Shown here: positions 3,183 to 45,320 of the stretch, piece by piece
How the letters are laid out: every line of letters begins with the position of its first letter
Position numbering within the stretch: position 1 is the first letter of the stretch
Assembly: GCA_011525945.1 (NCBI GenBank)
Contig: WYBJ01000071.1
Span: 1 to 61,145 of the forward strand
DNA from: Burkholderiaceae bacterium
GTDB lineage: Bacteria; Pseudomonadota; Gammaproteobacteria; Burkholderiales; WYBJ01
Direction of reading: 5' to 3'
Length of the DNA: 61,145 bases
Position numbers and translations under genes: made by a program
The notes under the pieces: model-generated
What the model was told of the DNA's origin: nothing
Database searches by the model: none
What the model saw: only the letters and a program-made list of their open reading frames with translations

Positions 3183-4013
3183 ATGGCCTCGCGCACCGCA
3201 TACAAAGCCATCATCCTGAGCGCCGGGCAGGGCAGCCGGCTCCTGCCCCATACCGAGCACGTTCCCAAGTGTCTGCTGGCATTGAACGGGTGCAGCTTGC
3301 TCGAATGGCAGCTGCAAAATCTCGCCGAGGCGGGTGTCCAAGAGGCCGTGGTCGTGACCGGCTTTCGCGACGACCTCGTGCGCCAAGAGATCGAGAGCCG
3401 CGCGCCTCGGTCCATGCAGGTCAGCACGCTCTTCAATCCCTTCTACAAGCTCGCCGACAATCTGGCGAGCTGCTGGATGGCGCGCGCAGAGCTCGCCGGC
3501 GCCTGCCTGATTCTCAACGGCGACACCTTGTTCGAGCCGGAAATCGCGCGCCGGCTGCTGGCGGCGCCGGACGCCCCGATCACGGTTACGATCGACCGCA
3601 AGTCAGCCTACGATGCCGACGACATGAAGGTGCACGATCATGGCAGCCGCATGATGGCTATCGGCAAGGCGTTGCCGGCGGGCGAGGTGACGGGCGAATC
3701 GATCGGCTTCCTGCGCTTCAATGCCGCGGGCGCCGCCCGGTTCGTCGCCGAGCTCGAGCACATCATGCGCACCCCGGAGGGCGCGAAGCTCTGGTATCTG
3801 TCGGCGATCGATCGCCTGGCGAAAGCCGGGGTGGATGTGCGCGTGGCGTCGATCGAGACGCTGCAATGGGCCGAGCTCGACTTTTCCGCCGATCTCGCGC
3901 GCTGTCGCGCAATCGCTGCTGCTTGGATCGCCCGGCGCCCGCTCGCCGATCGAAGTGAGTCAGGATTCGGTTTGGACGCGCCCCTCTCCCTGCGGGAGAG
4001 CGGGCGCGGGTGA
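3183..4013 (+). CDS. NTP-transferase (sugar-/alcohol-phosphate cytidylyl/nucleotidyltransferase, LicC/IPCT-like)
   Basis: N-terminal KAIILSAGQGSRL nucleotide-binding loop, then LILNGDTLFE and GESIGFLRF. The last ~12 codons (PLSLRESGRG) are encoded by the REP-like repeat at 3981-4018. Confidence 0.8.
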   Translation: MASRTAYKAIILSAGQGSRLLPHTEHVPKCLLALNGCSLLEWQLQNLAEAGVQEAVVVTGFRDDLVRQEIESRAPRSMQVSTLFNPFYKLADNLASCWMARAELAGACLILNGDTLFEPEIARRLLAAPDAPITVTIDRKSAYDADDMKVHDHGSRMMAIGKALPAGEVTGESIGFLRFNAAGAARFVAELEHIMRTPEGAKLWYLSAIDRLAKAGVDVRVASIETLQWAELDFSADLARCRAIAAAWIARRPLADRSESGFGLDAPLSLRESGRG

Positions 4014-4154: not shown

Positions 4155-4940
4155 TCAGAGCTTATCCGCGAGCGCGCGTACGAGCTCGAGATCGGCCGGC
4201 TTGTCGACGTCGATCGCCGCGCGCCCGTCGGCCAACTCCACGGCGCGAATGCTCGTGCCGGAAAGCGTCCCCAGCCGCGCGAGCGCATCGTCGAGGCGCA
4301 GTCGGCCGAGGCGGTAGCGCAGCGCCGCGCCGATTCCCAGGCGCAGCATCATCTTGAGCGGTGCTTTGCGATGCGCCTCGATCTCTCCCCAGAGGCGCAC
4401 GGCGCGTTCGGCGCTGGGGCGCTGGAAGCAAAAGAGATTGCAGCCCGAGTAATCGCCATCGGCGAAGCGAAGGTAGGTGCGTTGCGTTGCAGGCGCGCAC
4501 GCGACTACCGCGTCCTTGCGCGCGAGCGCGAGGGTCACATCGGCCTCGGGCGGGCAGGCGTCGAGAAACGCACCCAGCCACTGCGGCATGAGCAGTGCAT
4601 GATCGGCGGTGGTGACGACGAGCGGCGTGCCCTCGCGCTCGAGCACGGCAGCCACGCTGGCGCTCGGGCTGTACGCGGCCGGTACGATGGCAACCGGTTT
4701 CGGGCATCGTGGGGCGCGTAGCCCGGGTAGCGCCGATAACGCTTCCGGGCGCTCGATCGCGATGAGGATGCGGCTCACGGCGGGTACGGCGGCCAGTGCA
4801 GCCACGACGCGCTCGATCATCGTAGCACCGGCAACCTCGATCAGCGCCTTATGACTCACGCCGGCATATCTTGCGAGGGGATCGCCGTCTGGCCGGCTGC
4901 CGGCGAGCACGAGGGCACTGAGCCCGTTCTCCGCCTTCAA
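4155..4940 (-). CDS. MobA-like (GT-A fold) NTP-transferase domain protein
   Basis: Motifs SALVLAGSRPDGDPLA, EVAGATMIERVV and VVTTADHALL. Start set at TTG (complement 4938-4940), which overlaps the upstream stop as TTGA. The rest of track ORF 4155..5318 runs out of frame inside the upstream gene. The start is uncertain. Confidence 0.7.
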   Translation of the reverse strand: MKAENGLSALVLAGSRPDGDPLARYAGVSHKALIEVAGATMIERVVAALAAVPAVSRILIAIERPEALSALPGLRAPRCPKPVAIVPAAYSPSASVAAVLEREGTPLVVTTADHALLMPQWLGAFLDACPPEADVTLALARKDAVVACAPATQRTYLRFADGDYSGCNLFCFQRPSAERAVRLWGEIEAHRKAPLKMMLRLGIGAALRYRLGRLRLDDALARLGTLSGTSIRAVELADGRAAIDVDKPADLELVRALADKL

Positions 4941-6058
4941 GCGAGCGCCTTCTGGTAGATCCGGTAAGTCTTGTAGGGAACCGCGCCGAGCGTTTCGATC
5001 ACGCGCCGCATCGGCCGGTTGTCCTCCAGGATCCAGGAAAGCTCGACTTGCCGCACGCCGCGCGCTCGGGCGCCCGTGCGCAGCCGCTCGATGATGCCGT
5101 ACGCAAGTATGCCGCCGAGCACACCACCCTGGTACTGCGGTCGGATACCCATGAGCGGAACGCGTGCGGAGCGGGTTCCGCGCTTCAAGCGCACGAGCAG
5201 GCGCAACCAATTGAGCGGTAACAGACGGCCGTCGAAGCCGGCGATCGCCTCGTTGAGGTTCGGCAGCAGAATCCCGAATCCCACCGCTTTGCCGTCGATC
5301 TGTGCAATCGCGACACAACTCGGTTGAATCAAGGGCTTCAACGCCTTCGCCATGTGGCGGATCTCAGCCGCGGTGAACGGAATGAAGCCCCAGTTCGCGG
5401 ACCAGGCGGCGTTGAAGATCTCGGTGACGAGGTCGAACTCCTCGATGTAGCGGCGCATGTCGAGGGTGCGTACCGCGATCGCTCCGGGTGCTCGCGTATC
5501 GATGAGCCGGCGCGCGGCCGGCGGCAGATCGCGTTCGAGGTCGTACAGGTAGGCGATCGTGTCCTTCGCCTTGGCGTAGCCGCAAGCTTCCAGGCGCCGC
5601 GCCGCGTACGGCGGATCGTGCGCCATCATCATCATCGGCGGCGTGCCGAAGCCGTCGACGAGCAGGCCGCTTTCCTCGTTGATGGATAGATTGAAAGGGC
5701 CCAGTGCGCGATTTCGTCCGCGCGCAGACAGCCACGCCTCGGCTGCGCCAAACAGTGCCGCGAACGTGTCGGCGTCATCCTCGGCCGCGATCAGCCCGAA
5801 GTGGCCGTCCGCGTCCGGTGCGAGCCGGTCGACCTGGGCGCTAATGCGCCCGACATCCCGGCCTGCGCGTTGCGCCAGGAAGAACTGCGCTTCGGCGTGC
5901 TGAAAGTAGGGGTTGTGCCGCGGCGAGAGCGCCTGACTGCGCTCCAGATGCAGCGGCGTGACAAAGCACCGATCGGCCGCGTACAGTCGCGCGGGCAAAC
6001 GGATGAAGCGATCGAACTGCGAGCGCGTGCGCACCGGGACTACGGTTACGCCGCTCAT
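4937..6058 (-). CDS. GNAT-fold acyltransferase (~373 aa); candidate N-acyltransferase of the lipid island
   Basis: Begins MSGVTVVPVRTRSQFDRFIRLPARLY, with MMMAHDPPYAARRLEACGY and a GNAT-like motif-A region GIRPQYQGGVLGGILAYG. The ATG overlaps the upstream stop (ATGA at 6055-6058). The upstream 194 codons of the track ORF are Arg-rich shadow. Confidence 0.75.
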   Translation of the reverse strand: MSGVTVVPVRTRSQFDRFIRLPARLYAADRCFVTPLHLERSQALSPRHNPYFQHAEAQFFLAQRAGRDVGRISAQVDRLAPDADGHFGLIAAEDDADTFAALFGAAEAWLSARGRNRALGPFNLSINEESGLLVDGFGTPPMMMMAHDPPYAARRLEACGYAKAKDTIAYLYDLERDLPPAARRLIDTRAPGAIAVRTLDMRRYIEEFDLVTEIFNAAWSANWGFIPFTAAEIRHMAKALKPLIQPSCVAIAQIDGKAVGFGILLPNLNEAIAGFDGRLLPLNWLRLLVRLKRGTRSARVPLMGIRPQYQGGVLGGILAYGIIERLRTGARARGVRQVELSWILEDNRPMRRVIETLGAVPYKTYRIYQKALA

Positions 6059-7269
6059 CGGGGCTTGGAGCTCGCCGCGGGTGGGAACAGGAACCCGACC
6101 CAGACGGTTCGCAGCGTATGCCAAGCGAATGTCAGTGCCTGCCAGGCCGTGACCAGGATCAGTCCCGCGTCGCCAGTGCCGAGTGCGAGCGCGATCGCCA
6201 TGATCGTCATGGTGATGTTGCGGCGCGCGATCACGGCGCGTGCCAGCGCGTCGAGGCGCGTGGCCGCATGAAGCGCGGACCCGAGCTTGTATCGGGCGAT
6301 CCCGAGCACCAGTCGGTCGGCGACATAGAACACGATCAGCCATACGGCGGCGAGGTACATCGGATCGGCGAGCGTGCGCGCCCCCAGGCCCCAGGCCCAG
6401 GCGAAATACCAGAACGGCGGGTGCACTTGATCGAGTCCGTGGTCGAGAACGTTGCCGATCTTCGACTCGGTGAGCATCAGGCGCGCCACCTTGCCGTCGA
6501 CGCTGTCGAGCACGCTCATGGCGTAGGCGCACACGAAGCCGGCGAACCAATGTCCACCCGCCCACAGCGGTACGGCTGCGAATGCGAGCACTACCGACAG
6601 CGCCGTCAGCACGTTGGGGTGGACGCCGAGTGCGGTGCACACGCGCACGAGCGGCCAGACCAGCGGCGGATACACCCAGCGTGTCAGCAGGTCGGTCGAG
6701 CCTTTGTAGTTATCCCAGAAGAGCTGGCGCTCGAGCCGCCTGCGTGTGTCGGCATCCTCGACCACGTACTGCCACCAGGGAAGCGTGCGGCGCAGCTTGT
6801 CGATGTAGGCCGGGAAAGCGCGCTCGTCCAAAGGCGCGATCTTGCCGCCGGCGAGCAACGCATCGGCCACCGCGCTCAACGTGGTTGCTTCAGCGGGAAT
6901 GGCGTCGGCGTGCGAGCGATCCAGGCACAGGGCGGCGGCGCGCTGCGCGCCTTCGCCGCGCGCCGCCACACAGGGGCGAGCCGAAGCAAGAAAGCGGATC
7001 AGACGCGGGTCGGTGACGTGCGCGCCATCCACGGCGACGAGCGCTCCGCGAGCGTCGCGTAGTGCGCGCCGCAGCCGTTCGCCCAGCGGCGCCGTGCCGC
7101 AATCGGCACGCGCGCGGGGCCAGGCAGACTGTGCCGCACCGGCGCCGGACAGCATCACCGAATCGCCGGGCGCCAGATGACCGACGCTACGGCGCAGGCG
7201 CTCGAGTGGCGGCACGCCGAAGAGCGCTTGCGCCCGCGGCAGATTGCTTGTTTCGATCCAGAGGTTCAT
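6055..7269 (-). CDS. CDP-alcohol phosphatidyltransferase with ~190-aa N-terminal soluble extension (paralog 1)
   Basis: Exact signature D-G-x2-A-R-x8-G-x3-D-x3-D in DSVDGKVARLMLTESKIGNVLDHGLDQVHP. Multiple TM segments follow. ATGA overlap with the upstream gene at 7266-7269. Confidence 0.88.
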   Translation of the reverse strand: MNLWIETSNLPRAQALFGVPPLERLRRSVGHLAPGDSVMLSGAGAAQSAWPRARADCGTAPLGERLRRALRDARGALVAVDGAHVTDPRLIRFLASARPCVAARGEGAQRAAALCLDRSHADAIPAEATTLSAVADALLAGGKIAPLDERAFPAYIDKLRRTLPWWQYVVEDADTRRRLERQLFWDNYKGSTDLLTRWVYPPLVWPLVRVCTALGVHPNVLTALSVVLAFAAVPLWAGGHWFAGFVCAYAMSVLDSVDGKVARLMLTESKIGNVLDHGLDQVHPPFWYFAWAWGLGARTLADPMYLAAVWLIVFYVADRLVLGIARYKLGSALHAATRLDALARAVIARRNITMTIMAIALALGTGDAGLILVTAWQALTFAWHTLRTVWVGFLFPPAASSKPR

Positions 7270-8333
7270 CGGCGTTCGGCGAAATGAAGCTGCAGCAGTC
7301 CGATCGCGGAGAATAGCAGCGGCGCGGCGAGCGCGGCGACGACCGCGGGTATGCGTCCCGTCGTTCCGAGTGCAGCCATGAAGCCGTCGCACAGCAGGAA
7401 TGCGAGGCCAAGCCCAAGGGCAAGCAGCAGGGCGCCGGCTTCGTTGTTGCGACGCGGCAGCCCGCGCGCCGCCGGCAATGCGAGCAACAGCATGATGAAC
7501 GGCGCAAGCGGCAGCACGAACGAACGCACGAGTGCCGTCTGGTAGTAGCTCAGCGGCTGACTTGCGATGCGCTCGCCTCCGAGCACATCGATCAGCGCCG
7601 CGCTGGAGAGGTTCGGGCGCGCGATGTTGGCGCGGCGAACGTCATCCGGAGTGAGATTGGTCTGCCAGAGCGATATCGGTTCATCGGCACGAGGAACCGT
7701 CGCGCCCGGAACGACCAGTCGCTGGACACCTTCGAGCCGCCAGGCGCCGTGTTGCCATTGCGCGGACCGCGCTGCGATGCGCTCGGTGAGCAGGGTATTG
7801 TCACCGCGGACGTAAATGCGAACGCCGCCGAGGCGTTCGCCGTCGGCGGATGCGGTCAGATAGGATACCGGTCCCGTACTGGTGCGAAGCCAGCTCGGTT
7901 GCGGCGTATCATCGCGCGGCGCCGTGGCGGTCCACCAGGACTGCAACGCGGCTTCGGTATCGGGTACGACGGCTTGCGACAAGGCGATGTGCGTCATCGC
8001 CACGACCAGCGGAACGGGCAGCAGGTAGACGACGATCTGTTTCAGATTGACCCCGGCGGTGCGGATCGCGATCATCTCGTGGTGTCGGGCCAGGTCGTAA
8101 AATGCCCACATCGCACCGAGCAAGGCGGCGAGCGGCAGTGCCACTGTGATCTGGCTTGGCGCGCGCAGCGCGGCGTAGTACGCAAGCCCCTCGATGCCGA
8201 GGCCGCGATCGAGCACATCGGTGGTCATGTCCATCAGCTCGAGCGCTTGCATGAGTGCGATGAAAAAAATCGCAAGCAGCACGGTGTGTACAGCCACGCG
8301 CCGGCGCAGGTAGGCAGCGAGCGCGCCGTTCAT
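7266..8333 (-). CDS. LptG-like permease (YjgP/YjgQ family)
   Basis: Begins MNGALAAYLRRRVAVHTVLLAIFFIALMQALELMD. Organisation is 3 TM segments, a ~130-aa periplasmic domain, then 3 TM segments. It is the second of two tandem YjgP/YjgQ genes. ATGA overlap at 8330-8333. Confidence 0.8.
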   Translation of the reverse strand: MNGALAAYLRRRVAVHTVLLAIFFIALMQALELMDMTTDVLDRGLGIEGLAYYAALRAPSQITVALPLAALLGAMWAFYDLARHHEMIAIRTAGVNLKQIVVYLLPVPLVVAMTHIALSQAVVPDTEAALQSWWTATAPRDDTPQPSWLRTSTGPVSYLTASADGERLGGVRIYVRGDNTLLTERIAARSAQWQHGAWRLEGVQRLVVPGATVPRADEPISLWQTNLTPDDVRRANIARPNLSSAALIDVLGGERIASQPLSYYQTALVRSFVLPLAPFIMLLLALPAARGLPRRNNEAGALLLALGLGLAFLLCDGFMAALGTTGRIPAVVAALAAPLLFSAIGLLQLHFAERR

Positions 8334-9520
8334 CGCCGCCTCCCGCGCGCGAGGCCACGCGCATGCCGCAACGCTTCGCCCAGCCGGCTCTCGGCCCGGG
8401 TGAGCGGATTGTCGCCGGGCCAAGCGAGACTCGCGCGGAACAGCCAAAGGCAAAGCAGCGCGAATGCGACGAGCGGCAGCCACACCGACACTACGGCATC
8501 GGCGCGACCCGATTCAGCCAGGCTTTCGCCAAACTGCAGGCTGTGGTTGAGCACCAGCAAGGCGAGCGCGGTGAATACGGCGCCGGCGGCACGCCGGCCG
8601 CGTTTTGCCGCCATGCCGAGCGGAATGGCGAGCAGCGGCAGCAACGGCAGCACCGCCGAGCGTGCGAGGCGGCCGTGGAATTCACCCGCGAGGCGGGACG
8701 GGGCGATATCGGTTGCACCGCCGTGCATGTCGGCCCAGAGCTCGGGCAGCGTGAGCTCGCGCACCGAACCGCCGCGGGGGCGAAAAGTTGGCGCCTTGGG
8801 ATTGAAGTCCGCGTTGATCACCGCTTTCGTGAAGCGACCGAACCACGCCTTGCCCGGTTCGTACTCGCGCACGAGCAGGCCGTCTTCGAGTTCGAGCAGC
8901 AGGCGTCCGTCATCCGCGGGCACGAGTTCGCCTCGAGGCGCGGTCGTGATTTCCTCGCCGTCGCCCACGCGCCGCTGCACGAACACGCCTTGCAGGTGGC
9001 GCTTGTCGGGCGCGACCGCCTCGGCGTGGAAGACGAAGCCGCGGCCCGCCTTGCCGAAGCGATTCTCTTCCACTCGGGCATCCCAGCGGGCGTTCAGCGC
9101 CGCGTATACCTCGGCGCGGTAGGCGTAGCGGCTGAGCGGCTGCAGATGGCCGAAGAGGTAGAGGCTGAACACGGCGAGCCCGACGGCGAACACGAAGTAC
9201 GGCGCAGCCACACGCACGAGCGAGCGGCCAGAGGCGAGCACGATGTCGAGCTCGCTATCGTCGCTCAATCGAGCGAGTGCGAGGAACATGGCGACCGTGA
9301 AAGCCGCCGGCAGAGCGAGGCCGAGATAGTGCGGCAGCAGGTGCGCCGCCATGCGGAACACCGATGTGACCGGAGCGCCCGTGGCCGCGACCAGATCGAA
9401 CAGCCGCAGCAGGCGCTCGAGCAGTTGCGCAACCAGGATTGCGCCGAGGACGAAGCCGAGCGGGCCCATGAGGGCCCGCAACAGGTAGAAGTCCAGCCGG
9501 TACCCGCCCCTGGGCCGCAA
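8330..9520 (-). CDS. LptF-like permease (YjgP/YjgQ family)
   Basis: Begins RLDFYLLRALMGPLGFVLGAILVAQLLERLLRLFD, with IVLASGRSL. Same 3TM-periplasmic-3TM layout as its neighbour. The track start is a TTG at 9520, and the exact start is uncertain. Confidence 0.8.
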   Translation of the reverse strand: MRPRGGYRLDFYLLRALMGPLGFVLGAILVAQLLERLLRLFDLVAATGAPVTSVFRMAAHLLPHYLGLALPAAFTVAMFLALARLSDDSELDIVLASGRSLVRVAAPYFVFAVGLAVFSLYLFGHLQPLSRYAYRAEVYAALNARWDARVEENRFGKAGRGFVFHAEAVAPDKRHLQGVFVQRRVGDGEEITTAPRGELVPADDGRLLLELEDGLLVREYEPGKAWFGRFTKAVINADFNPKAPTFRPRGGSVRELTLPELWADMHGGATDIAPSRLAGEFHGRLARSAVLPLLPLLAIPLGMAAKRGRRAAGAVFTALALLVLNHSLQFGESLAESGRADAVVSVWLPLVAFALLCLWLFRASLAWPGDNPLTRAESRLGEALRHARGLARGRRR

Positions 9521-9536: not shown

Positions 9537-9980
9537 CTACGGGGCGGCTTGGCGCCAGGCCTGGCGCAACTCCCCCACCAGTGCGTCGCTGGCGGCAGCG
9601 TCCGGGACGACAGCAGGTTCCAGCATGGGCGGCCCCGGCCAGCCCGCGTCCGGGTAGTCCGCGCCCATGAAGCTGCGCTTGCCCGAATAACGCGGTATGA
9701 CGTGAAAGTGCACGTCCGGGTCCACCATCATCAGCATGAGGTAATTGATGCGTTCGTAATTCGTATACGCGCGCAGCATGTGCTCCGTCTTGCGCACCAC
9801 CTCGCGCAGTTCGGCAAAAGCTTGCGGGCTCGCATCGGAAAACGCGATCACCGGCTCGCGGCACACCAGCACGAGCGAGCCGAGCGTGGGCTGCCTGGGC
9901 CGCAGCAGCACGCTCCAGCGCTCGGTTTGCGCGATGCGAGTCGAAGGATCGCCGAACTTGATCTCGGTTGCGTTCGCCAT
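9537..9980 (-). CDS. HIT (histidine triad) family protein
   Basis: Begins MANATEIKFGDP. The triad region DVHFHVIPRY has Asp in place of the first His. It is the terminal part of the composite track ORF 9537..11285. Confidence 0.8.
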   Translation of the reverse strand: MANATEIKFGDPSTRIAQTERWSVLLRPRQPTLGSLVLVCREPVIAFSDASPQAFAELREVVRKTEHMLRAYTNYERINYLMLMMVDPDVHFHVIPRYSGKRSFMGADYPDAGWPGPPMLEPAVVPDAAASDALVGELRQAWRQAAP

Positions 9981-9982
9981 GG

Positions 9983-10942
9983 TCAGGCCACCGTTTGTTG
10001 CAGCCGCATCGGGCTCGAGCCGATCTGCTCCGGGGCGGCGTGTGGACGTGTCGTCGGGCGCGGAAGGCAGACTCGATAGCAGCCCGAATCGACGAAGCGC
10101 GCCTCGGCCATCGACCATTGGCGCACGGCGACCTCGACGGCACCCGCAGCCGAGAATCGTAGCCGGTGCCAGCGCGCGGCCTCGTCGCCCGCACTGGCTC
10201 GTGCAGTGGACGACGGCACGCACAGGCACGGAATCATGCCGCGCATCGCCCGCGGGCCCGGCAACGCGTCGAGCCGGGCGGCATGCGCATGGCCGTGCAG
10301 CACGAGCTCGGCGCCGGCGCGCTCGAGCACCGCGCAAAGTGCAGCCCGGTCGGCGAGCGCGCGGCGCCAGCCCACCGCGCCGGCGGCCACGGGGTGATGT
10401 ACGGCTACGATGCGTATGCGGCCGCTGCGCGCTTCGGCGTTGAGCGCGCTCTCCAGATGCGCAAGCTGGTGCGCGCCGATGCGCCCGCGAGCGAGTCCGG
10501 GTGCAGTCGGCCGTGCCGAATTGAGACCGATCAGCGCCAGACCTCCCCGATGATGAACGAAGGGCCAGCGACCGTCTGTGCTGGTCCATGCCGACCAGCG
10601 GCCCAGCCCCTCGGACTCGGCAACCGGAACCAGGGCATCGTGGTTGCCCGGCACGATGCTGATGCGATCGGCGGGTGCGAGCGCTTGCAGCCACGCCGCC
10701 GCACGCGTGAACTCCTCGGGTAGTGCGAAGTTCGTGAGATCGCCCGTGATCACGATATGGTCGAGCGCGGCCGCGCGCAACTCTGCGCTCAGCGCGGCGA
10801 GGATCTCCTCGCTTTGCACGTTGCGCCGGCGCCGCCACGCCCATGCACTCAACTGGCGCTTCGACAGTCGCTGCCGCAACCGCAGCTGCGGCTCGAACGG
10901 CAGGTGCAGGTCGGAGATGTGCGCAAGGGTGAAGGAATTCAT
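9983..10942 (-). CDS. calcineurin-like metallophosphoesterase
   Basis: Begins MNSFTLAHISDLHL (DxH), followed by ITGDLTN (GD), VPGNHD (GNHD), VAVHHP and LHGHAH. This is the first gene of the minus-strand operon that ends at 4155. Confidence 0.85.
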   Translation of the reverse strand: MNSFTLAHISDLHLPFEPQLRLRQRLSKRQLSAWAWRRRRNVQSEEILAALSAELRAAALDHIVITGDLTNFALPEEFTRAAAWLQALAPADRISIVPGNHDALVPVAESEGLGRWSAWTSTDGRWPFVHHRGGLALIGLNSARPTAPGLARGRIGAHQLAHLESALNAEARSGRIRIVAVHHPVAAGAVGWRRALADRAALCAVLERAGAELVLHGHAHAARLDALPGPRAMRGMIPCLCVPSSTARASAGDEAARWHRLRFSAAGAVEVAVRQWSMAEARFVDSGCYRVCLPRPTTRPHAAPEQIGSSPMRLQQTVA

Positions 10943-11013: not shown

Positions 11014-12108
11014 ATGAGTGAGGTGTCCGGACACATCGTCGGCGAATCAGCGCTGCATATCTGGGGCCTGCCGTCCGCAGCGCGCTTGCGCCGGCAGCTC
11101 GAGCGCGCCGGCGCGCTCGCGGCGCGCGCCGAGCGTGGGGTGTGGCTGCGCGCGGACTGGGTGTACGACCAGCCGATCGTACGCGCGCTCGTCGCGACTC
11201 GCGAGAACTGTGCCCTGGTCGCGGCCGACGGCCGCTGCGTGGCGCTGAGCGTCACGGGCGAGCGGCACGCCGAGGCCGAGCCCACGCTCGCCGCGTACGG
11301 GGTTCCCGGGGGCGTGCGCGCCGTGAGCGTCGCGCAACTCGCCGGCAGCTACGACGACAAGCTGCGCAAGCGCGAGGCGCCTTATCTCATGCCGCTCTCG
11401 CCGCAGACGCTGCCGGCGATCGAACGTCGCATCTTCGGCGCAGCGTACAAGGGCGTGACCGATGCCGTTACGCTCTACCTCTGGCCGGCGCCGGCGCGGG
11501 CGGTGACACGCTTTTGCGCGCAGCACGCGATTACGCCCAACCAGGTGACGTTCGCGAGCCTGCTGCTGGTTTTGGCGGCGATGTGGCTTTTCTGGACCGG
11601 ACATTACGGCCTGGGCCTCGTTTGCGCATGGGTGATGACATTCCTCGACACGGTCGACGGCAAGCTTGCACGCGTCACGCTCACGTTCACCCGCTTCGGT
11701 GACGTGTTCGATCACGGCATCGACCTCATCCATCCGCCTTTCTGGTGGTGGGCGTGGCTCGTGGGGCTGCCGGCGGTGGGCCTGGCGCTCGACCATGCGT
11801 CCGTGGTTCTTGCGGCGATCGTCGCGGGCTACGTGGCACAGCGCCTGGAGGAGGGCGCGTTCATCGCCTGGTTCGGGATGGACATGCATACCTGGCAGCG
11901 CTTCGACAGCCGTTTTCGTCTGATCACCGCCCGGCGCAATCCCAACCTGCTGATCCTGACGTGCTCGGCGGCCGCGGGCAGACCGGATGTCGGTATCGTA
12001 GCGGTTGCGCTCTGGACCGTGTTTTCGCTCGGTGTGCACAGCGTGCGTCTGGCACAGGCGGGGCTGGTGCGCCGTCGGGGGCCGCTGCGCTCGTGGCTCG
12101 CGTCCTGA
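11014..12108 (+). CDS. CDP-alcohol phosphatidyltransferase with N-terminal extension (paralog 2)
   Basis: Signature in DTVDGKLARVTLTFTRFGDVFDHGIDLIHPPFWWW. The N-terminal domain is alignable by eye with paralog 1 (…KLRKREAPYL…AAYKGVTDAVTLYLWP versus …KLRRTLPWWQ…DNYKGSTDLLTRWVYP). The ATG at 11014 was chosen over the track start at 10948. Confidence 0.88.
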   Translation: MSEVSGHIVGESALHIWGLPSAARLRRQLERAGALAARAERGVWLRADWVYDQPIVRALVATRENCALVAADGRCVALSVTGERHAEAEPTLAAYGVPGGVRAVSVAQLAGSYDDKLRKREAPYLMPLSPQTLPAIERRIFGAAYKGVTDAVTLYLWPAPARAVTRFCAQHAITPNQVTFASLLLVLAAMWLFWTGHYGLGLVCAWVMTFLDTVDGKLARVTLTFTRFGDVFDHGIDLIHPPFWWWAWLVGLPAVGLALDHASVVLAAIVAGYVAQRLEEGAFIAWFGMDMHTWQRFDSRFRLITARRNPNLLILTCSAAAGRPDVGIVAVALWTVFSLGVHSVRLAQAGLVRRRGPLRSWLAS

Positions 12109-13055
12109 AATCCGGCACACACCCGCATGCGGCGCTCGCTGCGCTGATCGAACCGGAGCTCGATCGCGTCCTGCCGCGCGAAGTCGCCGCGTTCGCCGAG
12201 CGACTCGCGGCGCGCGCCGGCGCCAAGACCGCGGCAGTGCTCTTCTATGGCTCGGCGTTGCGCGACCAGGCGCTCGATGGCTTGCTCGATTTCTATCTGC
12301 TGGTCGATCGAGCGCGTGCGTGGCCCGGTTCGTGGCTCGCCGCGGCGGCCATGCGCGTATTGCCGCCCAATGTCGGCTACGCGGAAGAGGAATTCGGCGG
12401 GCGAATGCTGCGCGCCAAGTACGCCGTCATGACTTTGGCGCAGTTTCGCCGTGCGATGGCAGCGCGCTCGCTCGACACGACGCTCTGGACGCGCTTCTCG
12501 CAGCCGTGCGCCTGCGCCTATGCACGCAGCGACGACGATCGCGATGCGGTGCTCGATGCCGCGTGCGCGGCCACGCTGGCGGCGGCGTACTGGGCGGCCG
12601 TGGTCGGACCCGATCGCGGCGAGCCCTCGGCGTACTGGAACGCGCTCTACGCCCGCACCTACGAGCTCGAGCTCAGGGTGGAGTCGGCGCGGCGCAGCGA
12701 CTCCGTGCTCGCCGGGGCGAGCGAGCGCTATGCGCGCCTGCTGCCCGTGGCGTGGCACGCTGCTGGCGTCGCATTCGAGACGCACCGCGATGAATTGCGC
12801 CGGCTGCTCGCGCCAAGCGATCGTGCCGCTGCCCTGCGACGATGGGCACTGCGACGCCGGCTCGGGCGGGCGCTCAATTTGCTGCGGCTCATGAAAGCGG
12901 CGCTCACGTTCGAGCGTCCGCTCGATTACGTCGCATGGAAAGTCGAACGCCATTCGGGCGTACGGCTCGACTTCGCGCCATGGCAACGGCGCTTTCCTCT
13001 GCTCGCCGCACCCGGGCTTTACTGCCGTTTGCGCCGCCGCGGCCTGCTCCGTTAG
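12093..13055 (+). CDS. Tam41/Mmp37-like nucleotidyltransferase-fold protein (putative lipid-phosphate cytidylyltransferase)
   Basis: 3-prime part of track ORF 11745..13055. Contains VLFYGSALRDQALDGLLDFYLLVD (NTase G-S…D motif), LRAKYAVMTLAQF…LWTRFSQP and a C-terminal LRLMKAALTFERPLDYVAWKVER. These resemble Tam41 as I remember it. The start is provisional: GTG 12093, overlapping the upstream gene by 16 nt. Confidence 0.6.
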   Translation: MARVLKSGTHPHAALAALIEPELDRVLPREVAAFAERLAARAGAKTAAVLFYGSALRDQALDGLLDFYLLVDRARAWPGSWLAAAAMRVLPPNVGYAEEEFGGRMLRAKYAVMTLAQFRRAMAARSLDTTLWTRFSQPCACAYARSDDDRDAVLDAACAATLAAAYWAAVVGPDRGEPSAYWNALYARTYELELRVESARRSDSVLAGASERYARLLPVAWHAAGVAFETHRDELRRLLAPSDRAAALRRWALRRRLGRALNLLRLMKAALTFERPLDYVAWKVERHSGVRLDFAPWQRRFPLLAAPGLYCRLRRRGLLR

Positions 13056-13112: not shown

Positions 13113-14102
13113 TCATCGCATCGTCGGGCGCTCGGCGAGCCAGCCGGCGGCCCGGTACCAGGCCACCGCATCCGCAAACCCGGATTCGAGCTCGAACCGA
13201 GGACTCCAGCCCCTGGGCCTGGCCTGCTCGTTGACAGACACCGACCAGTCGAGATGGGAGATTTCACGCAGCTTGTGCGAATTGAGCATCGTCGGCGTGC
13301 CCAGCAAACGCCCCAGATCTCCCGCCCACGCGGCCGTACGCAGCAACGCCCGCGGCATCCGCACGAGCCGTGCATGCGGATTGCCGACGGCACGCGCGCC
13401 CGCGCCCAGAATCTCGCGCCAGTCGTAGCCTTGCGCTCTCGCGTCGGTTGCCGCCAGCACCTCGCCCTCGGGCTTGGCTGTCGCCAGCGCGACGATGAGG
13501 GCGGCGAGATCGCGCACGTGAATGAGCGCCACGCGTGCCTGCGCCGAGGCGGGTAGCGCGACGATGCGATGACGCGCCAGGCGAAACAAGCGCAGCGTCT
13601 CCGGATCGGCAGGACCGTACACCGCGGCGGGACGCAGCACCGTCGCCTGCGCCCCGAGTATTTCGCGCACCGCGTCCTCGCCCGCGCGCTTGCTCGCGGC
13701 GTAGTCGGACAGACACGGTTCGCGTGCGGCGAGCGTGGAAACGTGGACGAAATGCGCCCGGGGCGCAAGTCGCCGTGCGCTGCCGGCAAGCGCTGCGCTC
13801 GCCGCGGCGTTGACCTGGAAGAAATCCCGCCGGCGCGCCGCCTTGATGAGCCCGGCGACATGGATCACCGCGTCTGCGCCGTCGACCAGACGCTCGAGCG
13901 CGGACGCATCGGCCAGCGCGCCGGCCACGACTTCGGGACAAATCCCGTGCCAGTCCGCGTCGTGCGGTTCGCGCCGCACGAGCATGCGCAGCCGCCACCC
14001 GGCGTGCGCGAGCGCGGGCACGAGATGGCGGCCGATGAAGCCAGTTGCGCCGGTCAGCGCCGCAAGCGGCGCGCCGGAGTCGGCCGGTTCTGTCGCGATC
14101 AT
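13113..14102 (-). CDS. NAD(P)-dependent epimerase/dehydratase-fold (extended SDR) reductase
   Basis: Rossmann loop LTGATGFIGRHLV and a YxxxK motif in DYAASKRAGE. Confidence 0.85.
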   Translation of the reverse strand: MIATEPADSGAPLAALTGATGFIGRHLVPALAHAGWRLRMLVRREPHDADWHGICPEVVAGALADASALERLVDGADAVIHVAGLIKAARRRDFFQVNAAASAALAGSARRLAPRAHFVHVSTLAAREPCLSDYAASKRAGEDAVREILGAQATVLRPAAVYGPADPETLRLFRLARHRIVALPASAQARVALIHVRDLAALIVALATAKPEGEVLAATDARAQGYDWREILGAGARAVGNPHARLVRMPRALLRTAAWAGDLGRLLGTPTMLNSHKLREISHLDWSVSVNEQARPRGWSPRFELESGFADAVAWYRAAGWLAERPTMR

Positions 14103-14236
14103 GTCGTCACGAGGCGGGCGGCGAATGCCGGTGGCTTGATGATGCGGCGCATATTACTATCGACGCGCTGGAACCGTATTCCCGCGCCACCGCTCGCCGC
14201 GCGGGCGTGCCTTTGCCATCATCTGACGCGCCGACC

Positions 14237-16453
14237 ATGTCCTCTCCTCTGCGAAATCAAGATGCGCTCCCGCTACTGCAAACGGCCGAAGCGCTTGGCG
14301 TCGAGTGCCTGACGTTCGGTGTTGCGCCCGGTGTCGCGCCGAACGGCAAGCCGCCGGTGCGCATTTTCCTCGGCACCGAGGAGGCGCAGGGCCGTGCCGA
14401 GCGCGTGTTTCTTTACACCGTACACAAGCATCGCGATGCCGCGCGCGTCTACCAGGTCTACCTCATGAAGGAGCTGCCGGGGTTCGATCGGCGCACCTGG
14501 CGCACCGGTTTCACGCAATACCGCTTCGCGATCCCGGAACTCGCAGGCGGGCACGGCCGGGCGATCTACAACGATGTCGATCAGATCTACCTCGCCGATC
14601 CGGCGGCGCTGTTCGATCTCGACCTGAAAAGCTGCGGTTACCGCGCAGTCGCCGCCAACGACACCTCGGTGATGGTGATGGACTGCGCGCGCATGCTGCC
14701 GTGGTGGAACGTCGGCGCTGCGCGGGCAAGCGGCAAGCGCGAGCTGGTGGATGCGCCCGCTGCCGAGCCCGGGCTTTGGGGCGTGCTCGATGGCGATTGG
14801 AATGCGCGCGATTTCGAGTATCGCCGCGGCGCATCGAAGCTCCTGCACTACACGACGCTGCACCTGCAACCTTGGCGACCGACGCCCGGGCAATATTCCT
14901 ACCACCCGCACCCGCTCGCTTCGCTGTGGCAGCACCTCGAGCGCGAAGCCGATGCGATGCACTACCAGCCGTTCACGCAGGCGCATCCGAGCGCGGCGTA
15001 TCGCCGCTTGCTTTCGGCAGGACAGGCGCCGCTGCTGCCTGCAGCGGGTGAGACGGTGAGCGTTGGCGAGAACCTCGAACGCTTGCCGGCGCAGGATCGC
15101 GCATGGTTTCTGGATGCCGTGTTCGCTCGGGCGCAAGCCGCGGTGCAACTGCGGGTGGACGTTCGCGCGGCGATTACGCCGGCGGACCGCGCGCCGGTGC
15201 TGCGAATCACGGCGCCGGCGCAGTGGTGGCGCGAAGGTCTCGCGCAGGCCGCGGAGCACCGCCCCGAGGTCGCGTGGACGCTCGATCTCATCGAGCGCGA
15301 CGGCACGCGCAGCTTCCACTACCAGCCGCCACGGGGTGCGCCGCGCGTCTGGGTTCTGCTGGGCCGTCACGAGGGTGACAATCGCCAGTTGCTCGCGCTC
15401 GCCGAAGCGCTCGGCTGGCCCTTCGAGACGCGCAGACTCGACTTCAAGCGCCACCGCATCCTGCCCAACTGGCTGCAAGGCGGCTCGCTCGCGCAACTCG
15501 ATCGTATCCGCTCCGAGTCACTGGGTCCGCCTTGGCCCGACCTCGTCCTCGCCTGCGGCCGGCGCAGCGCACCGGTCGCGCGCTGGATCGGCCGCCGCTC
15601 CGCGGGTACGGCGCGTCTGGTGCACCTCGGGCGCCCGCAAGCGCCGCTGGCGGCATTCGACCTCGTCGTCACCACGCCGCAGTACCGCCTGCCCGGGCGC
15701 GACAACGTGGTGTACAACGTGCTCCCGCTCAACCGCACGATGCCGGGAGCGAGTGCGCGTGCCGCGGCGTCATGGGCGCCGCGGCTCGAACACCTGCCGC
15801 GGCCGTGGATCGCACTGCTCGTCGGCGGCAACAGCTCTTCAAGCGAGCTGAGCACGGCCGTCGCGAGTCGACTGCGCGATCAAGCGGAAGCGCTCGCGCG
15901 CGAACGCGGCGGCTCGCTTCTCATCGCCACCAGCCCGCGCACGCCGCCGCCGGCAGCGGACATCGTGCTCGCGGATTCTGCCGTGCCTGGCGTGCGCTAC
16001 CGTTGGCGCGCGCGCGATCCCGACAATCCCTACGCGCTGTTTCTCGATCGGGCCGACGAGCTGATCGTCACCGGCGACAGCGCCTCGATGCTCGCCGAGG
16101 CATGCGCGTCGGGCCGCCCGGTGCATTACGTCGCTCTGCCCTGGCCGGCAAGACGCAGGCGTCTTGCCCTGGCTGCGCTGCGGTTGCTAGCGGGTCGGCA
16201 AGACCGGCTCGGCGAGCGTGGTACGCCCAAGCAGCAGGGCCGCATCGGCCGCTGGCGTGACCGGCTCCTTGCTGCTGGAGTGCTGCGGCCCCCGCGCGAT
16301 CTCAGCGCCCTGCACGAGGCATTGCGCTGGAGCGGGCTCGCGCAGCCGCTCGGAGAACCGGGTTCGCCGCTGCCCGGGGCTTGCGACGATCTCGAGCGCA
16401 CCGTGGCCGCGGTGCGTCGGCTGCTCCTGAGTGGCCGCGCCGCGCGATCATGA
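14237..16453 (+). CDS. fusion protein: GT8-like glycosyltransferase domain + ELM1 (DUF1022)-like domain
   Basis: N-terminal half: YRFAIPELAGGHGRAIYNDVDQIYLADPAALFDLDL (DxD) and LLHYTTLHLQPW. C-terminal half: VWVLLGRHEGDNRQLLALAEALGWPF…DLVLACGRRS…LVGGNSSS…LIVTGDSASMLAEACASGRPV. Start is the ATG at 14237 inside track ORF 14045..16453. Confidence 0.75.
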   Translation: MSSPLRNQDALPLLQTAEALGVECLTFGVAPGVAPNGKPPVRIFLGTEEAQGRAERVFLYTVHKHRDAARVYQVYLMKELPGFDRRTWRTGFTQYRFAIPELAGGHGRAIYNDVDQIYLADPAALFDLDLKSCGYRAVAANDTSVMVMDCARMLPWWNVGAARASGKRELVDAPAAEPGLWGVLDGDWNARDFEYRRGASKLLHYTTLHLQPWRPTPGQYSYHPHPLASLWQHLEREADAMHYQPFTQAHPSAAYRRLLSAGQAPLLPAAGETVSVGENLERLPAQDRAWFLDAVFARAQAAVQLRVDVRAAITPADRAPVLRITAPAQWWREGLAQAAEHRPEVAWTLDLIERDGTRSFHYQPPRGAPRVWVLLGRHEGDNRQLLALAEALGWPFETRRLDFKRHRILPNWLQGGSLAQLDRIRSESLGPPWPDLVLACGRRSAPVARWIGRRSAGTARLVHLGRPQAPLAAFDLVVTTPQYRLPGRDNVVYNVLPLNRTMPGASARAAASWAPRLEHLPRPWIALLVGGNSSSSELSTAVASRLRDQAEALARERGGSLLIATSPRTPPPAADIVLADSAVPGVRYRWRARDPDNPYALFLDRADELIVTGDSASMLAEACASGRPVHYVALPWPARRRRLALAALRLLAGRQDRLGERGTPKQQGRIGRWRDRLLAAGVLRPPRDLSALHEALRWSGLAQPLGEPGSPLPGACDDLERTVAAVRRLLLSGRAARS

Positions 16454-17724
16454 CGCGGCTTGCATCGGTTCGCACGCTCGCCGCGCAGGCGAGGCGGATC
16501 ACTTTGCTGCTGCCATCGCTGGCGGCCGGCGGTGTGGCCCGCTCGGTGCTGCATCTTGCCGGTGCGTTCGACGATGCCGGCCGGTCGGTCGATCTCGTGC
16601 TGTGCAAGGCCGAGGGCCCCAATCTCTCGAGCGTGCCCGCCGGTGTCAACGTCGTGACGTTGCGGCGCGAGAGTCCGATCGCCGCTCGCGCGCGGCTGCT
16701 ACGGCTCGATCCGCGCGGCGCGGCGGCGATGGCGCGCCCTGCCTTGTTTGCCTGGCGTCCGGCTCCGGTCCAGCCCTATCTCGCCGACCTGGCGCGCTAT
16801 CTAGATCGGGTACGACCCGACGTGCTGCTGTCGGCAAAGACACCGACAAATCTGCTCGCGCTCTGGGCGCAGCGCGCGAGCGGGGGCGCTACGCGCGTGG
16901 TGGTTGCCGAGCACACGCAGTTGTCGCAATCGATCGCGCGCGAGCGCAAGTGGCGCTGGCGTTACATCGCGCCGTTGGTGGCGCGCGCGTATGCCGGCGC
17001 GGACGCGATCGTGTGCGTGTCGGACGGCGTCGCCGACGATCTCGCCTGTACCGCGCGATTGCAGCGCTCGCGTCTGAGCACGATCTACAACCCGGTCGTG
17101 ACGCCGGAGCTTGCGCTGCGCGCTGCCGAAGCCCCGCCGCATGCCTGGCTCGATGCGAGCGCCGATGCGGGCGTGCGTCGAACCGCGCATCCGCCGGTCC
17201 TCGTCGCCGCGGGTCGGCTGGTCGCGCAGAAGAACTTCGCGCTGCTGCTGCATGCGTTCGCGCGGCTACGCTCGCAGCGCCCGGCGCGTTTGTTGATCCT
17301 GGGCGAGGGGCGCGAGCGGCCGAAGCTGGAGGCGCTCGCTCGCGAGCTCGGCATTGCCGCCGATGTCGCCCTGCCGGGCCATGTGGCCAATCCGTATGCG
17401 GCTTTCGCGCGCGCCAGCACGTTCGTGCTCTCGTCGGATTGGGAAGGATTGCCGACGGTGCTGATCGAGGCGCTCGCCTGCGGTTGTCCCGTCGTGAGCA
17501 CCGATTGCCCGAGCGGCCCGGCCGAGATTCTGCAACACGGGCACTACGGTGCGCTCGTGCCGATGGGAGACGCCACCGCGCTCGCGCAAGCGATGGCGGC
17601 CACGCTCGAGCGACCTCCGGCAGTCGAGCTGCTGCGTGGCCGCGCGCAAGCATTCACGCTGCAACGGAGCGCCCAGCGCTACCTCGAGCTGCTCGATGGA
17701 CTCTTTTTGCGTGCGCCCGCGTAA
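16450..17724 (+). CDS. GT4-family (GT-B) glycosyltransferase
   Basis: E-x7-E motif in SDWEGLPTVLIEALACGCPVVSTD, plus LVAAGRLVAQKNF. ATGA overlap with the upstream stop at 16450-16453. Confidence 0.85.
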   Translation: MTRLASVRTLAAQARRITLLLPSLAAGGVARSVLHLAGAFDDAGRSVDLVLCKAEGPNLSSVPAGVNVVTLRRESPIAARARLLRLDPRGAAAMARPALFAWRPAPVQPYLADLARYLDRVRPDVLLSAKTPTNLLALWAQRASGGATRVVVAEHTQLSQSIARERKWRWRYIAPLVARAYAGADAIVCVSDGVADDLACTARLQRSRLSTIYNPVVTPELALRAAEAPPHAWLDASADAGVRRTAHPPVLVAAGRLVAQKNFALLLHAFARLRSQRPARLLILGEGRERPKLEALARELGIAADVALPGHVANPYAAFARASTFVLSSDWEGLPTVLIEALACGCPVVSTDCPSGPAEILQHGHYGALVPMGDATALAQAMAATLERPPAVELLRGRAQAFTLQRSAQRYLELLDGLFLRAPA

Positions 17725-17744
17725 CGCGTGCGTTTGCTGCTACG

Positions 17745-18821
17745 ATGCCGCGAAAGAGAAGGGCCTTCACCGTGCAGCTGCCCGCCGGGCGCTTCGCAAA
17801 TCTCATCGTCGCTTCGACCTTCTACCACGTCATACTCGCTTGCCTGATCGCGCGCGATGTGCGCTTCGCAGGCGCGAGCGCGCTGGTTCTACACATGGGC
17901 CGCGAGCAGATGGCGGCGTTGTACGAGTCGCTGGCGCGATCGACGGACAGCCCGTTTGCAGCGACGGTCGCGATGCATCCGGGCGAGGGCGGCAAGGCAG
18001 CGCGCGAGCGTGCCCAGGGCCGCTGGCTCGCACGGCTCGATCGAATCGTGCAGAGCGAGCGCGTCATCGTCTTCAACGACCTGACGCCCGACCTGCAGCT
18101 TCTGTGCCGGCGCGCAGAGCAGCGCGGCGCGCGTACGTTCTGTGGCGAGGATGGCGGCGCGGCGTATTCGTCCCGCAGCGCCGCCTCTGCGCGGCGGCGG
18201 CATCTGCAGCGGATGCTGCGTTTCGGCCCCTGGATCGAGAACGTGGTTGCGTCCGGCGCCAGCCGTCATATCCAGACCTATCTCGCGCTCAATGCCGAGC
18301 TGCTGCGCCCCGAGCTCCAGCACAAGCCCGTCTGGGCGTTGCAGGCTCGGGCCATGCCGGAGCTGATCGCGTCGAGCTGGATCGGCGAGTTTCTGGCGCG
18401 CTTCGGGGTTGCGCCGAGCGCGCTCGCGTGCGACGAGCTGTACGTTCCGGCGAGAAATCGGCCGTCCGCGGCACGCGAGCGGGCGTGCTCGGCGCTGTCG
18501 CGGGAGCTGCACGCGGCTAGACAGGCCGGTCTGGATTGCCTGGTGAAGTATCATCCGCGCGACCCGCAGGACCGCCTCGGCGCGCAAGCGCTCGGCGTGC
18601 GCGTGTTGCCGGCGGCGATCCCCGCGGAACTGATCTATCTCGCCAGCGGCGAAAGGCTTCGCCGTGTTCTCGGCGACACGGGCACGACGCTCATGAGCGC
18701 GCGCTGGCTTGCACCGCAGGCGCAGGCGATCTCGGCGCTGGAGCTGTCGGCCATGGATGATCCGTGGTACGCGCGCACGCTCGAGCGGCTCGGGGTGCAG
18801 AGCCTGCATATCCAGGCGTGA
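17745..18821 (+). CDS. hypothetical protein carrying the two short bacterial-sialyltransferase signature motifs (D/E-D/E-G and H-P)
   Basis: 3-prime part of track ORF 16431..18821, starting at ATG 17745. Contains FCGEDGGAAY (residues ~135-137) and LVKYHPRDP (residues ~270-271). No other recognisable domain. Confidence 0.6.
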   Translation: MPRKRRAFTVQLPAGRFANLIVASTFYHVILACLIARDVRFAGASALVLHMGREQMAALYESLARSTDSPFAATVAMHPGEGGKAARERAQGRWLARLDRIVQSERVIVFNDLTPDLQLLCRRAEQRGARTFCGEDGGAAYSSRSAASARRRHLQRMLRFGPWIENVVASGASRHIQTYLALNAELLRPELQHKPVWALQARAMPELIASSWIGEFLARFGVAPSALACDELYVPARNRPSAARERACSALSRELHAARQAGLDCLVKYHPRDPQDRLGAQALGVRVLPAAIPAELIYLASGERLRRVLGDTGTTLMSARWLAPQAQAISALELSAMDDPWYARTLERLGVQSLHIQA

Positions 18822-18860
18822 CCCCCCGTAGCCCGATTCCGACCGGAGTACGACGTCAAG

Positions 18861-19793: not shown

Positions 19794-19799
19794 CAGCCG

Positions 19800-20837: not shown

Positions 20838-21044
20838 GGCGGCCGCCGAGCCTGCGTCAGACGGCGTAAAGGTTGCGCGCGCACGCAACCCACGAGATTC
20901 GCGCGATGCCATCAGCATGGGGCGCGCCCGGTGCGCGCTCGATCGCCCGCAACCCGCGCCGGGAGTTGGTCTTGCGCGGCGCGCCGGCGAGGTCGCACCG
21001 TGGGTGCGCACGGCGCTTGCGCGACACCTGCGGGTCGAGATCGT

Positions 21045-41883: not shown

Positions 41884-41896
41884 CGCGCTACCCCGT

Positions 41897-42894
<998 letters not shown>

Positions 42895-42898
<4 letters not shown>

Positions 42899-45314: not shown

Positions 45315-45320
45315 GCCTTG

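Follow-up and report, generated by a model that had tools for sequence, protein, structure and literature searches.

Contig WYBJ01000071.1 of a Burkholderiaceae bacterium (assembly GCA_011525945.1) contains two adjacent genes on the minus strand that encode permeases of the LptF/LptG family, and here we consider which lipid these proteins are likely to move. The window that we have analyzed is the whole stretch of 61,145 nucleotides, with a GC content of ~67% that is uniform along its length. The first permease gene, at 8330-9520 with a TTG start at 9520, encodes 396 amino acids (aa), and the second, at 7266-8333, encodes 355 aa. Both products match PF03739 over almost its entire length, at E-values of 1.7e-60 and 1.4e-57 respectively. 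They score 205.4 and 195.8 bits, where the cut-off is 27.9, in alignments spanning positions 2-352 and 2-349 of the 353 in the profile. The boundaries of both genes are those of the NCBI gene calls on the matching contig of a metagenome-assembled genome (MAG; GCA_020850975.1). The surroundings of the pair, from ~3.2 to 29.4 kb, constitute a bacterial sphingolipid locus as judged from the proteins encoded there, and we refer to this region as the island.

The two genes belong to a tightly coupled operon of seven genes on the minus strand, and its start is ~70 bp away from a gene that diverges from it. The operon begins with a metallophosphoesterase gene, which is separated by 2 nt from a gene for a HIT protein, and this in turn lies 16 nt from the LptF-like gene. 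The stop codon of the LptF-like gene and the start codon of the LptG-like gene overlap in the sequence ATGA (8333-8330). The same overlap connects the LptG-like gene to that of a CDP-alcohol transferase (7269-7266), and the latter to a gene encoding 373 aa (6058-6055). The final junction, between the 373-aa gene and that of a nucleotidyltransferase with a TTG start, is TTGA (4940-4937). The original prediction, made from the letters of the DNA, had placed the permeases between the HIT/metallophosphoesterase and CDP-alcohol transferase genes, and the Pfam matches and junctions agree with this. It had also described a consecutive series of ATGA overlaps, which holds for three junctions and fails for the last. 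Overlaps of 4 nt are commonplace in operons; among 76 non-redundant related loci, 65 have that between the F and G genes. A promoter scan of the operon gave two promoter-like sites, both on the wrong strand, and a terminator scan gave a single terminator-like site within the LptF-like gene, a rate below that of shuffled sequence.

A Pfam scan of all the sizeable open reading frames of the 61-kb window revealed no LptB, LptC, LptA, LptD or LptE, nor did we find an LptC2-like gene among them. ABC ATPase domains are confined to two Opp-type ATPases (34383-36355) and a fused MsbA-like exporter (22003-23775). The earlier statement that no LptB-like ATPase gene adjoins the pair can thus be extended to the whole 61 kb. 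No second LptF/LptG pair was seen inside the window.

The first protein is clearly of the F type, scoring 194.6 bits with the NCBIfam LptF model versus 98.2 bits with the LptG model, and the second is of the G type (217.2 bits with the LptG model versus 69.3 bits with the LptF model). Yet neither reaches the equivalog cut-off for its type, which is 230 bits for LptF (TIGR04407) and 240 bits for LptG (TIGR04408), and NCBI labels the window protein and its relatives simply as LptF/LptG family permease. Against the proteins of solved structure they score 33 bits (LptF-like) and 84 bits (LptG-like). The second LptF/LptG copies of Caulobacter, LptF2 and LptG2, are much closer. The LptF-like protein aligns with Caulobacter LptF2 at 222 bits, with 41% identity over 399 aa, compared with 59 bits for Caulobacter LptF and 20 bits for E. 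coli LptF. The LptG-like protein gives 150 bits and 33% identity with Caulobacter LptG2, compared with 61 bits for Caulobacter LptG and 72 bits for E. coli LptG. Both relations are reciprocal best matches in pairwise protein comparison. Since these reciprocal matches lie far above the canonical scores, we assign the pair, by sequence, to the experimentally studied LptF2/LptG2 group, and use these names below.

The Caulobacter proteins provide the functional context. In 2024 CC_1156 and CC_1155 were predicted to be second LptF/LptG copies serving phosphosphingolipid export, with clusters of orthologues in alpha-, beta- (Nitrosomonas) and gammaproteobacteria (PMC11324152); the same paper describes CC_1158, and CC_1157 is a HIT protein. 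Genetic analysis (bioRxiv 10.64898/2026.04.12.717747) has since found that deletion of lptF2, lptG2 or lptC2 is possible only if spt or the ceramide kinase gene cpgB is also deleted, and that LptF2 and LptG2 are needed when the anionic sphingolipid is made. LptF2 and LptG2 co-purify, and the single housekeeping LptB comes down with each of them in pull-downs. According to the same preprint lptF2 and lptG2 are found in numerous sphingolipid loci, while lptC2 is confined to Caulobacter.

Relatives of the pair are widespread. Among 1.84 billion representative proteins we found 209 clusters at E <= 1e-30, some of them fused F-G proteins of ~760 aa, and when one genome was scanned for each species 488 genomes had a relative. 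We read the loci of the best 80 of these 488 genomes with flanks of 10 kb, and counted linkage in the 56 loci of at least 20 kb, which span the alpha-, beta- and gammaproteobacteria. The best 80 include isolates of Burkholderiales (Piscinibacter koreensis, Ramlibacter alkalitolerans, Variovorax sp. N23 and Curvibacter soli), Nevskiales (Panacagrimonas perspica, Solimonas and Hydrocarboniphaga) and Rhodospirillales (Stella vacuolata, Aerophototrophica crusticola and Azospirillum picis), together with Steroidobacteraceae as MAGs.

Linkage within the long loci is almost absolute. LptG2 adjoins LptF2 in all 56. The metallophosphoesterase is found in 55, a MobA-like nucleotidyltransferase and a 320-aa protein of no known family in 54 each, a CDP-alcohol transferase in 53 and the HIT protein in 52. 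The ceramide synthase bCerS is present in 48, the reductase CerR in 47 and the acyl-acyl carrier protein (ACP) synthetase AasR in 45. Serine palmitoyltransferase (Spt; 28/56) and the MsbA-like exporter (21/56) were counted less often, both counts being limited by the 10-kb flank. Glycosyltransferases are uncommon, with Elm1 in six loci, GT4 in eight and GT2 in none. No related locus contains a third LptF/LptG gene, and no LptB-like or other stand-alone ABC ATPase was found linked to the pair in these loci. A synteny in which relatives keep the pair and lack the island, one of the two parts of the outcome named at the outset as evidence against a dedicated function, is contradicted by the 56 long loci, as the relatives keep the island.

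Two variations of the proteins themselves were observed. Some relatives, and one related locus, have single fused LptF2-LptG2 proteins of ~750-780 aa. In several Burkholderiales and in Hydrocarboniphaga effusa the LptF2 match extends over ~1740 nt rather than ~1110 nt, implying an insertion of ~200 aa within LptF2.

When plasmid records were searched at the protein level, an orthologous island was located on pDCB2 (NZ_CP065408.1, locus 9031-36264), an IncP conjugative plasmid of 77.6 kb from the comamonad (Comamonadaceae) Diaphorobacter sp. JS3051. It contains counterparts of 18 window genes at 44-74% identity, with the core in the same order, including the extra CDP-alcohol transferase. The plasmid island is complete with its own LptF2, LptG2 and MsbA-like exporter, and it is flanked by mercury and arsenic (mer/ars) resistance genes and a Tn3 transposase. 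Most of its enzymes are 61-74% identical to those of the window and the acyltransferase is 53% identical; LptF2 (52%), LptG2 (48%), and the kinase and Elm1-type protein (44% each) are among the least conserved. The paper describing the genome of Diaphorobacter sp. JS3051 does not mention the island on pDCB2. Replicons of ~400 kb in Roseomonas also carry LptF2.

We have compared the pair with the canonical proteins at the level of fold and of individual residues. An AlphaFold2 model of LptF2 (pLDDT 83.4) has transmembrane helices flanking a beta domain at residues 162-235, and the top 29 matches to it in the PDB are all LptF/LptG chains, with E-values down to 4e-14 and TM-scores of ~0.55-0.68. 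As modeled, LptF2 keeps the LptF/LptG fold. LptG2 aligns with E. coli LptG across its full length. For individual positions 81 LptF2 and 74 LptG2 sequences from the related loci were aligned with the E. coli proteins. The glutamates of the coupling helices, E84 of LptF and E88 of LptG in E. coli, which we take to dock LptB, correspond to E90 and E86 in the window proteins, and are glutamate in 81/81 and 74/74 relatives respectively.

The positions that contact LPS in the canonical complex are very different. These are K34, K40, K41, K62, R133 and R136 of LptG, and R33, K317, K322 and R263 of LptF (Tang et al. 2019, PMC6744409). Three of the contacts to the 1'-phosphate in LptG are replaced by E32 (K34; glutamate or aspartate in all 74 relatives), W134 (R136; tryptophan in 73 of 74) and S60 (K62; mostly small or neutral in the relatives, the five commonest residues being A, S, T, V and L). 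The fourth, R133, is Q131 in the window and lysine in 43/74 relatives. T38 lies in place of K40, which contacts the 4'-phosphate, and is threonine, serine or glycine in 73/74; D39 lies in place of K41, which contacts the inner core, and is aspartate or glutamate in 67/74. In LptF the 4'-phosphate contact K317 has become E332, and glutamate is found in 64/81 relatives. Only R39, equivalent to the 1'-phosphate contact R33 and arginine in all 81 relatives, is retained by the window LptF2 out of the four LptF contacts. In the canonical LptG the changes K34E and R136E are lethal (PMC6744409). Caulobacter LptG2 has the matching residues D, S, D and W at the positions of K34, K40, K41 and R136. As the coupling-helix glutamates are invariant and most of the lipid A phosphate contacts are replaced, the alignments indicate that the pair has kept the site where an LptB-type motor docks while its substrate cavity is lined differently.

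The genes around the pair encode a likely route to its substrate. Spt, AcpR, AasR, CerR and bCerS are all encoded within 20 kb of the permeases, and the first three of these have been characterized in the sphingolipid locus of E. coli BL21(DE3) (PMC9386255). Spt (28186-29382, plus strand) scores 561.9 bits with the betaproteobacterial Spt equivalog NF047599, exceeding its curated cut-off of 500, and is 48% identical to BL21 Spt (E 1e-114). Just upstream on the same strand lie AcpR-type ACP (27954-28181; 45% identity to BL21 AcpR, E 1e-09) and AasR-type acyl-ACP synthetase (26086-27957; 48% identity to BL21 AasR, E 1e-162); the latter scores 766 bits with the fatty acyl-AMP ligase model NF006624, above the cut-off of 600. 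A CerR-type NAD-dependent reductase is encoded at 13113-14102 on the minus strand (PF01370, E 1.5e-24; 34% identity to BL21 CerR, E 6e-35). The 373-aa gene of the permease operon (4937-6058, minus strand) had been called a GNAT acetyltransferase. It has no Pfam or NCBIfam match, and its product shares 42% identity with YghO of E. coli BL21 across 382 aa (E 3e-91), placing it with the ceramide synthases of bCerS/YghO type, in the same position as CC_1154. The lipid left unnamed in the original prediction is, on this gene content, a sphingolipid.

Other genes of the operon and its surroundings include candidates for building a head group. Within the operon, on the minus strand, are the MobA-like nucleotidyltransferase (4155-4940; PF12804, E 2.5e-13; position of CC_1153), which overlaps bCerS in the TTGA junction, the HIT-family protein (9537-9980; PF01230, E 2.8e-5; position of CC_1157) and the metallophosphoesterase (9983-10942; PF00149, E 1.3e-13; position of CC_1158) that is encoded by its first gene. 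On the plus strand a nucleotidyltransferase in the position of CC_1152 (3183-4013; PF12804 and PF00483) has counterparts in 45/56 long loci. Divergent from the operon is a CDP-alcohol phosphotransferase (11014-12108, plus strand, start taken from the NCBI call; PF01066, E 6e-11; position of CC_1159), followed by the conserved 320-aa protein (12093-13055, plus strand), which matches no Pfam or NCBIfam family. A further CDP-alcohol phosphotransferase is inserted between LptG2 and bCerS (6055-7269, minus strand; PF01066, E 1.5e-9) and is translationally coupled to both. It has an N-terminal extension of ~200 aa without a recognizable domain. Orthologues at 55% identity or above are found only in a subset of loci, comprising some Burkholderiales, Panacagrimonas and pDCB2. 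This second enzyme suggests that the head group is unlike that of Caulobacter.

A second group of minus-strand genes lies between CerR and AasR. It includes an LpxL-family acyltransferase (21045-22010; PF03279, E 7e-20) that falls far under all the LpxL equivalog cut-offs. Next to it is the exporter at 22003-23775, MsbA-like as originally described, which has fused ABC_membrane and ABC_tran domains; its 213.8 bits on the MsbA equivalog are far under the cut-off of 602. The exporter is followed by a DAGK-type lipid kinase that is a candidate ceramide kinase (23772-24770, start inferred; PF00781, a weak match at E 6e-6) and by a protein of the fatty-acid desaturase/hydroxylase family (24773-25951; PF00487, E 4e-27). 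In beta- and gammaproteobacterial loci the exporter travels with the lipid kinase, the desaturase and the LpxL-family acyltransferase. It is a candidate flippase, and may be the sphingolipid flippase that replaces the MOP-type candidate of Caulobacter. The block at 14045-21011 is missing from most related loci, and encodes an Elm1/GtrOC1-type protein whose long N-terminus has no recognizable domain, a GT4 glycosyltransferase, a 349-aa protein without a family, a methyltransferase and a GT2 glycosyltransferase. No LPS genes above equivalog cut-offs were found in the window. Neither tRNA genes nor transposases were found at the borders of the island within the window and the GC content is also uniform, so that these data give no sign of recent acquisition of the island in this genome.

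Beyond the island, a UGSC-family gene (PF24696; 53479-55311, plus strand) is split by an in-frame TGA at 53899-53901. The local motif reads U-G-A-C, which makes the TGA a candidate selenocysteine codon, and a hairpin just 3' of it folds no better than shuffled sequence. A minus-strand cluster at 36367-42898 contains genes for a MoxR AAA ATPase, DUF58, BatA and VWA proteins, and is followed by three large open reading frames at 42895-47501 that have no Pfam match.

We propose that the pair forms the membrane half of a second Lpt-type extractor that is dedicated to sphingolipid, and from sequence and analogy we put the probability of this at roughly 78%. The proposal rests on the LptF2/LptG2 orthology, the scores below cut-off, the loss of lipid A contacts and the constant linkage to the island, including on a conjugative plasmid. 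By analogy with Caulobacter, Spt, AcpR, AasR, bCerS and CerR would make ceramide, and the kinase, nucleotidyltransferases, CDP-alcohol transferases and phosphoesterase would build the head group. The product would be a ceramide-based phospholipid, possibly glycosylated, made at the inner membrane. A flippase, probably the MsbA-like exporter of the island, would transfer this to the periplasmic leaflet. A heterodimer of LptF2 and LptG2, powered by the ordinary LptB of the cell, would then pull the lipid from the inner membrane, as indicated by orthology, the docking residues and the Caulobacter experiments. From there the lipid would pass through the periplasmic beta-jellyroll of the dimer onto the Lpt bridge, and so reach the outer membrane. 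Passage over LptC and LptA and insertion by LptD and LptE might complete the route, in Caulobacter too. We infer the function in this organism, the assignment of the flippase and the use of LptC, LptA, LptD and LptE.

A number of points weigh against a dedicated second extractor. The coexistence of the pair with a canonical lptFG elsewhere in the genome, though likely, and the presence of a single lptB are assumptions; for coexistence the plasmid-borne island of Diaphorobacter and the two lptFG pairs of E. coli BL21, one of them of a different lineage, give indirect support. The only lptFG homologues of Sphingomonas wittichii are reported to be of the LptF2/LptG2 type, so that this type can be a sole extractor (bioRxiv 10.64898/2026.04.12.717747). 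Experiments on such pairs come only from Caulobacter, and bear on lipid transport indirectly, through genetics, co-purification and pull-down. The Caulobacter LptF2, LptF, LptG2 and LptG sequences that we used were machine-read from Supplemental Figure 1 of the preprint, with a few residues missing. Lastly, the lipid A contacts were defined in Shigella and E. coli and may not hold for the canonical LptG of Burkholderiales; the canonical LptG of Caulobacter has alanine at the position of K34.

The original prediction had offered two readings, an extractor dedicated to a non-LPS lipid of the outer membrane or a housekeeping LptFG co-regulated with the lipid. We retain the former and disfavor the latter. 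Were the pair the only LptFG of the organism, moving LPS and merely co-expressed in a lipid operon, one could understand why the 61-kb window contains no second pair, and Sphingomonas wittichii would offer a precedent as an organism reported to have only lptFG of this type. Such a role is hard to reconcile with two proteins that fall under the LptF and LptG equivalog cut-offs and are far closer to Caulobacter LptF2 and LptG2 than to any canonical protein compared. LptG2 also has naturally, as glutamate or aspartate, the kind of residue that is lethal as K34E in canonical LptG, together with tryptophan in place of R136. In the 56 long loci of relatives the pair is never found without the island, and the whole island including the pair can be the cargo of a conjugative plasmid. 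We consider a housekeeping function very unlikely. Sphingomonas also provides the model for another possibility, whereby the pair would be dedicated to sphingolipid without being a paralogue, as the sole Lpt extractor of an outer membrane that has sphingolipid and no LPS. The only lptFG reported there are treated as LptF2/LptG2 orthologues, and the window itself lacks LPS genes above equivalog cut-offs. This we judge to be most unlikely, as ordinary Burkholderiales genera (Variovorax, Ramlibacter, Curvibacter and Piscinibacter) carry the island, and in Diaphorobacter it resides on a plasmid. Nor are Burkholderiales known to lack LPS.

It is also conceivable that the pair extracts a different product of the island, for instance a glycolipid, or a lipid with an acylated head group, that would arise from the glycosyltransferases and LpxL-like acyltransferase, or that it works with a partner other than LptB. 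The cavity residues are unlike the canonical ones, and compared with Caulobacter the island has as extras a second CDP-alcohol transferase, GT4, GT2 and Elm1-type proteins, a methyltransferase, the LpxL-family acyltransferase and the MsbA-like exporter. But the core that travels with the pair is the ceramide/CPG2-type set and not the glycosyltransferases, which are found in at most eight of the 56 long loci. The coupling-helix glutamates that would dock LptB are invariant, and the linked genes include no other stand-alone ABC ATPase. We therefore regard this as unlikely, and favor an extractor dedicated to sphingolipid.

More tentatively, the island might be a self-contained, horizontally mobile cassette for an outer-membrane lipid, comprising synthesis, flippase and extractor, that travels between hosts, for example by way of the IncP plasmid pDCB2, and uses the LptB and Lpt bridge of each new host. 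The cavity of LptG2, with glutamate or aspartate at the position of K34 and tryptophan at that of R136, would then act as a selectivity filter admitting sphingolipid and excluding lipid A. We think this more likely to be wrong than right, and offer it as a possibility. If true, sphingolipid and lipid A would share one motor and bridge without competing at the point of extraction.

The route by which sphingolipids reach the bacterial surface was unknown until very recently, and the proposal from Caulobacter is that a second LptFG borrows LptB, the motor for LPS. The LptF2/LptG2 arrangement is already known from a prediction of 2024 (PMC11324152) and its test in 2026 (bioRxiv 10.64898/2026.04.12.717747), and the window presents the same module in the same gene order, now in Burkholderiales. 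Our analysis goes modestly beyond the literature that we consulted in the systematic loss of lipid A phosphate contacts, the near-absolute linkage over three classes and the carriage on a conjugative plasmid. It leaves the existing picture of the specialist unchanged, while the comparative data supply concrete residues to mutate and culturable carriers of the island.

Comparison with other lptFG pairs sets these proteins in context. The locus of E. coli B and UTI89 (BL21 ECD_RS14855/ECD_RS14850) resembles the window in having a second lptFG beside spt, acpR, cerR, aasR and yghO. The complete genome of BL21(DE3) (NC_012971.2) has both this pair and a pepA-linked lptFG. The LptG of the sphingolipid locus (the pair lies at 22920-25066 of the locus as read, and is named LptF/LptG in RefSeq) is like the window LptG2 in having no basic residues at K34, K40, K41, R133 and R136. 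Unlike the window, the BL21 locus has no head-group genes of CPG2 type. We considered this pair as an orthologue of that in the window and rejected it, as it scores 83-143 bits with the LptF and LptG of E. coli itself and only 25-69 bits with the window and Caulobacter pairs. A search of E. coli genomes with the window pair at the DNA level gave no match. By these scores the BL21 pair belongs to a lineage separate from LptF2/LptG2, and its loss of contact residues may be convergent. In the literature the Sphingomonas proteins (Swit_3905/Swit_3906) are regarded as orthologous to CC_1156/CC_1155 and as transporters of sphingolipid. They are reported as the sole pair of an LPS-free organism, and are less clustered with head-group genes than the window pair.

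The canonical LptB2FG(C) complexes, with structures from E. coli, Shigella, Enterobacter, Pseudomonas and Acinetobacter, share with the window pair the Pfam family, the predicted fold, the adjacency of F and G, the coupling-helix glutamates and R33 of LptF. They differ in that the window proteins are under the equivalog cut-offs and lack the basic contacts to the lipid A phosphates and core. The window pair is also placed inside a sphingolipid operon rather than beside pepA, which the canonical pair of BL21 adjoins.

The closest similarity is to the Caulobacter locus, where LptF2 and LptG2 are CCNA_01214 and CCNA_01213 (CC_1156 and CC_1155). In both organisms the pair sits between the HIT/phosphoesterase and the ceramide synthase/nucleotidyltransferase genes, with spt, acpR, aasR and cerR nearby and no lptB in the locus. 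The gene order is that of CC_1152-CC_1159, namely nucleotidyltransferase, MobA-like protein, bCerS, LptG2, LptF2, HIT protein, calcineurin-type phosphoesterase and CDP-alcohol transferase. The candidate equivalents of CC_1152, CC_1153, CC_1158, CC_1159, CC_1160 and CC_1161, compared by domain, agree in domains and order; among them the window kinase matches PF00781 weakly (E 6e-6), and the 320-aa protein belongs to no known family. The window differs in having the CDP-alcohol transferase inserted after LptG2, in lacking LptC2, and in having an MsbA-like ABC exporter in place of the MOP-type flippase candidate CC_1166. Finally, its island has extra glycosyl-, methyl- and acyltransferases, and its host is a Burkholderiales MAG.

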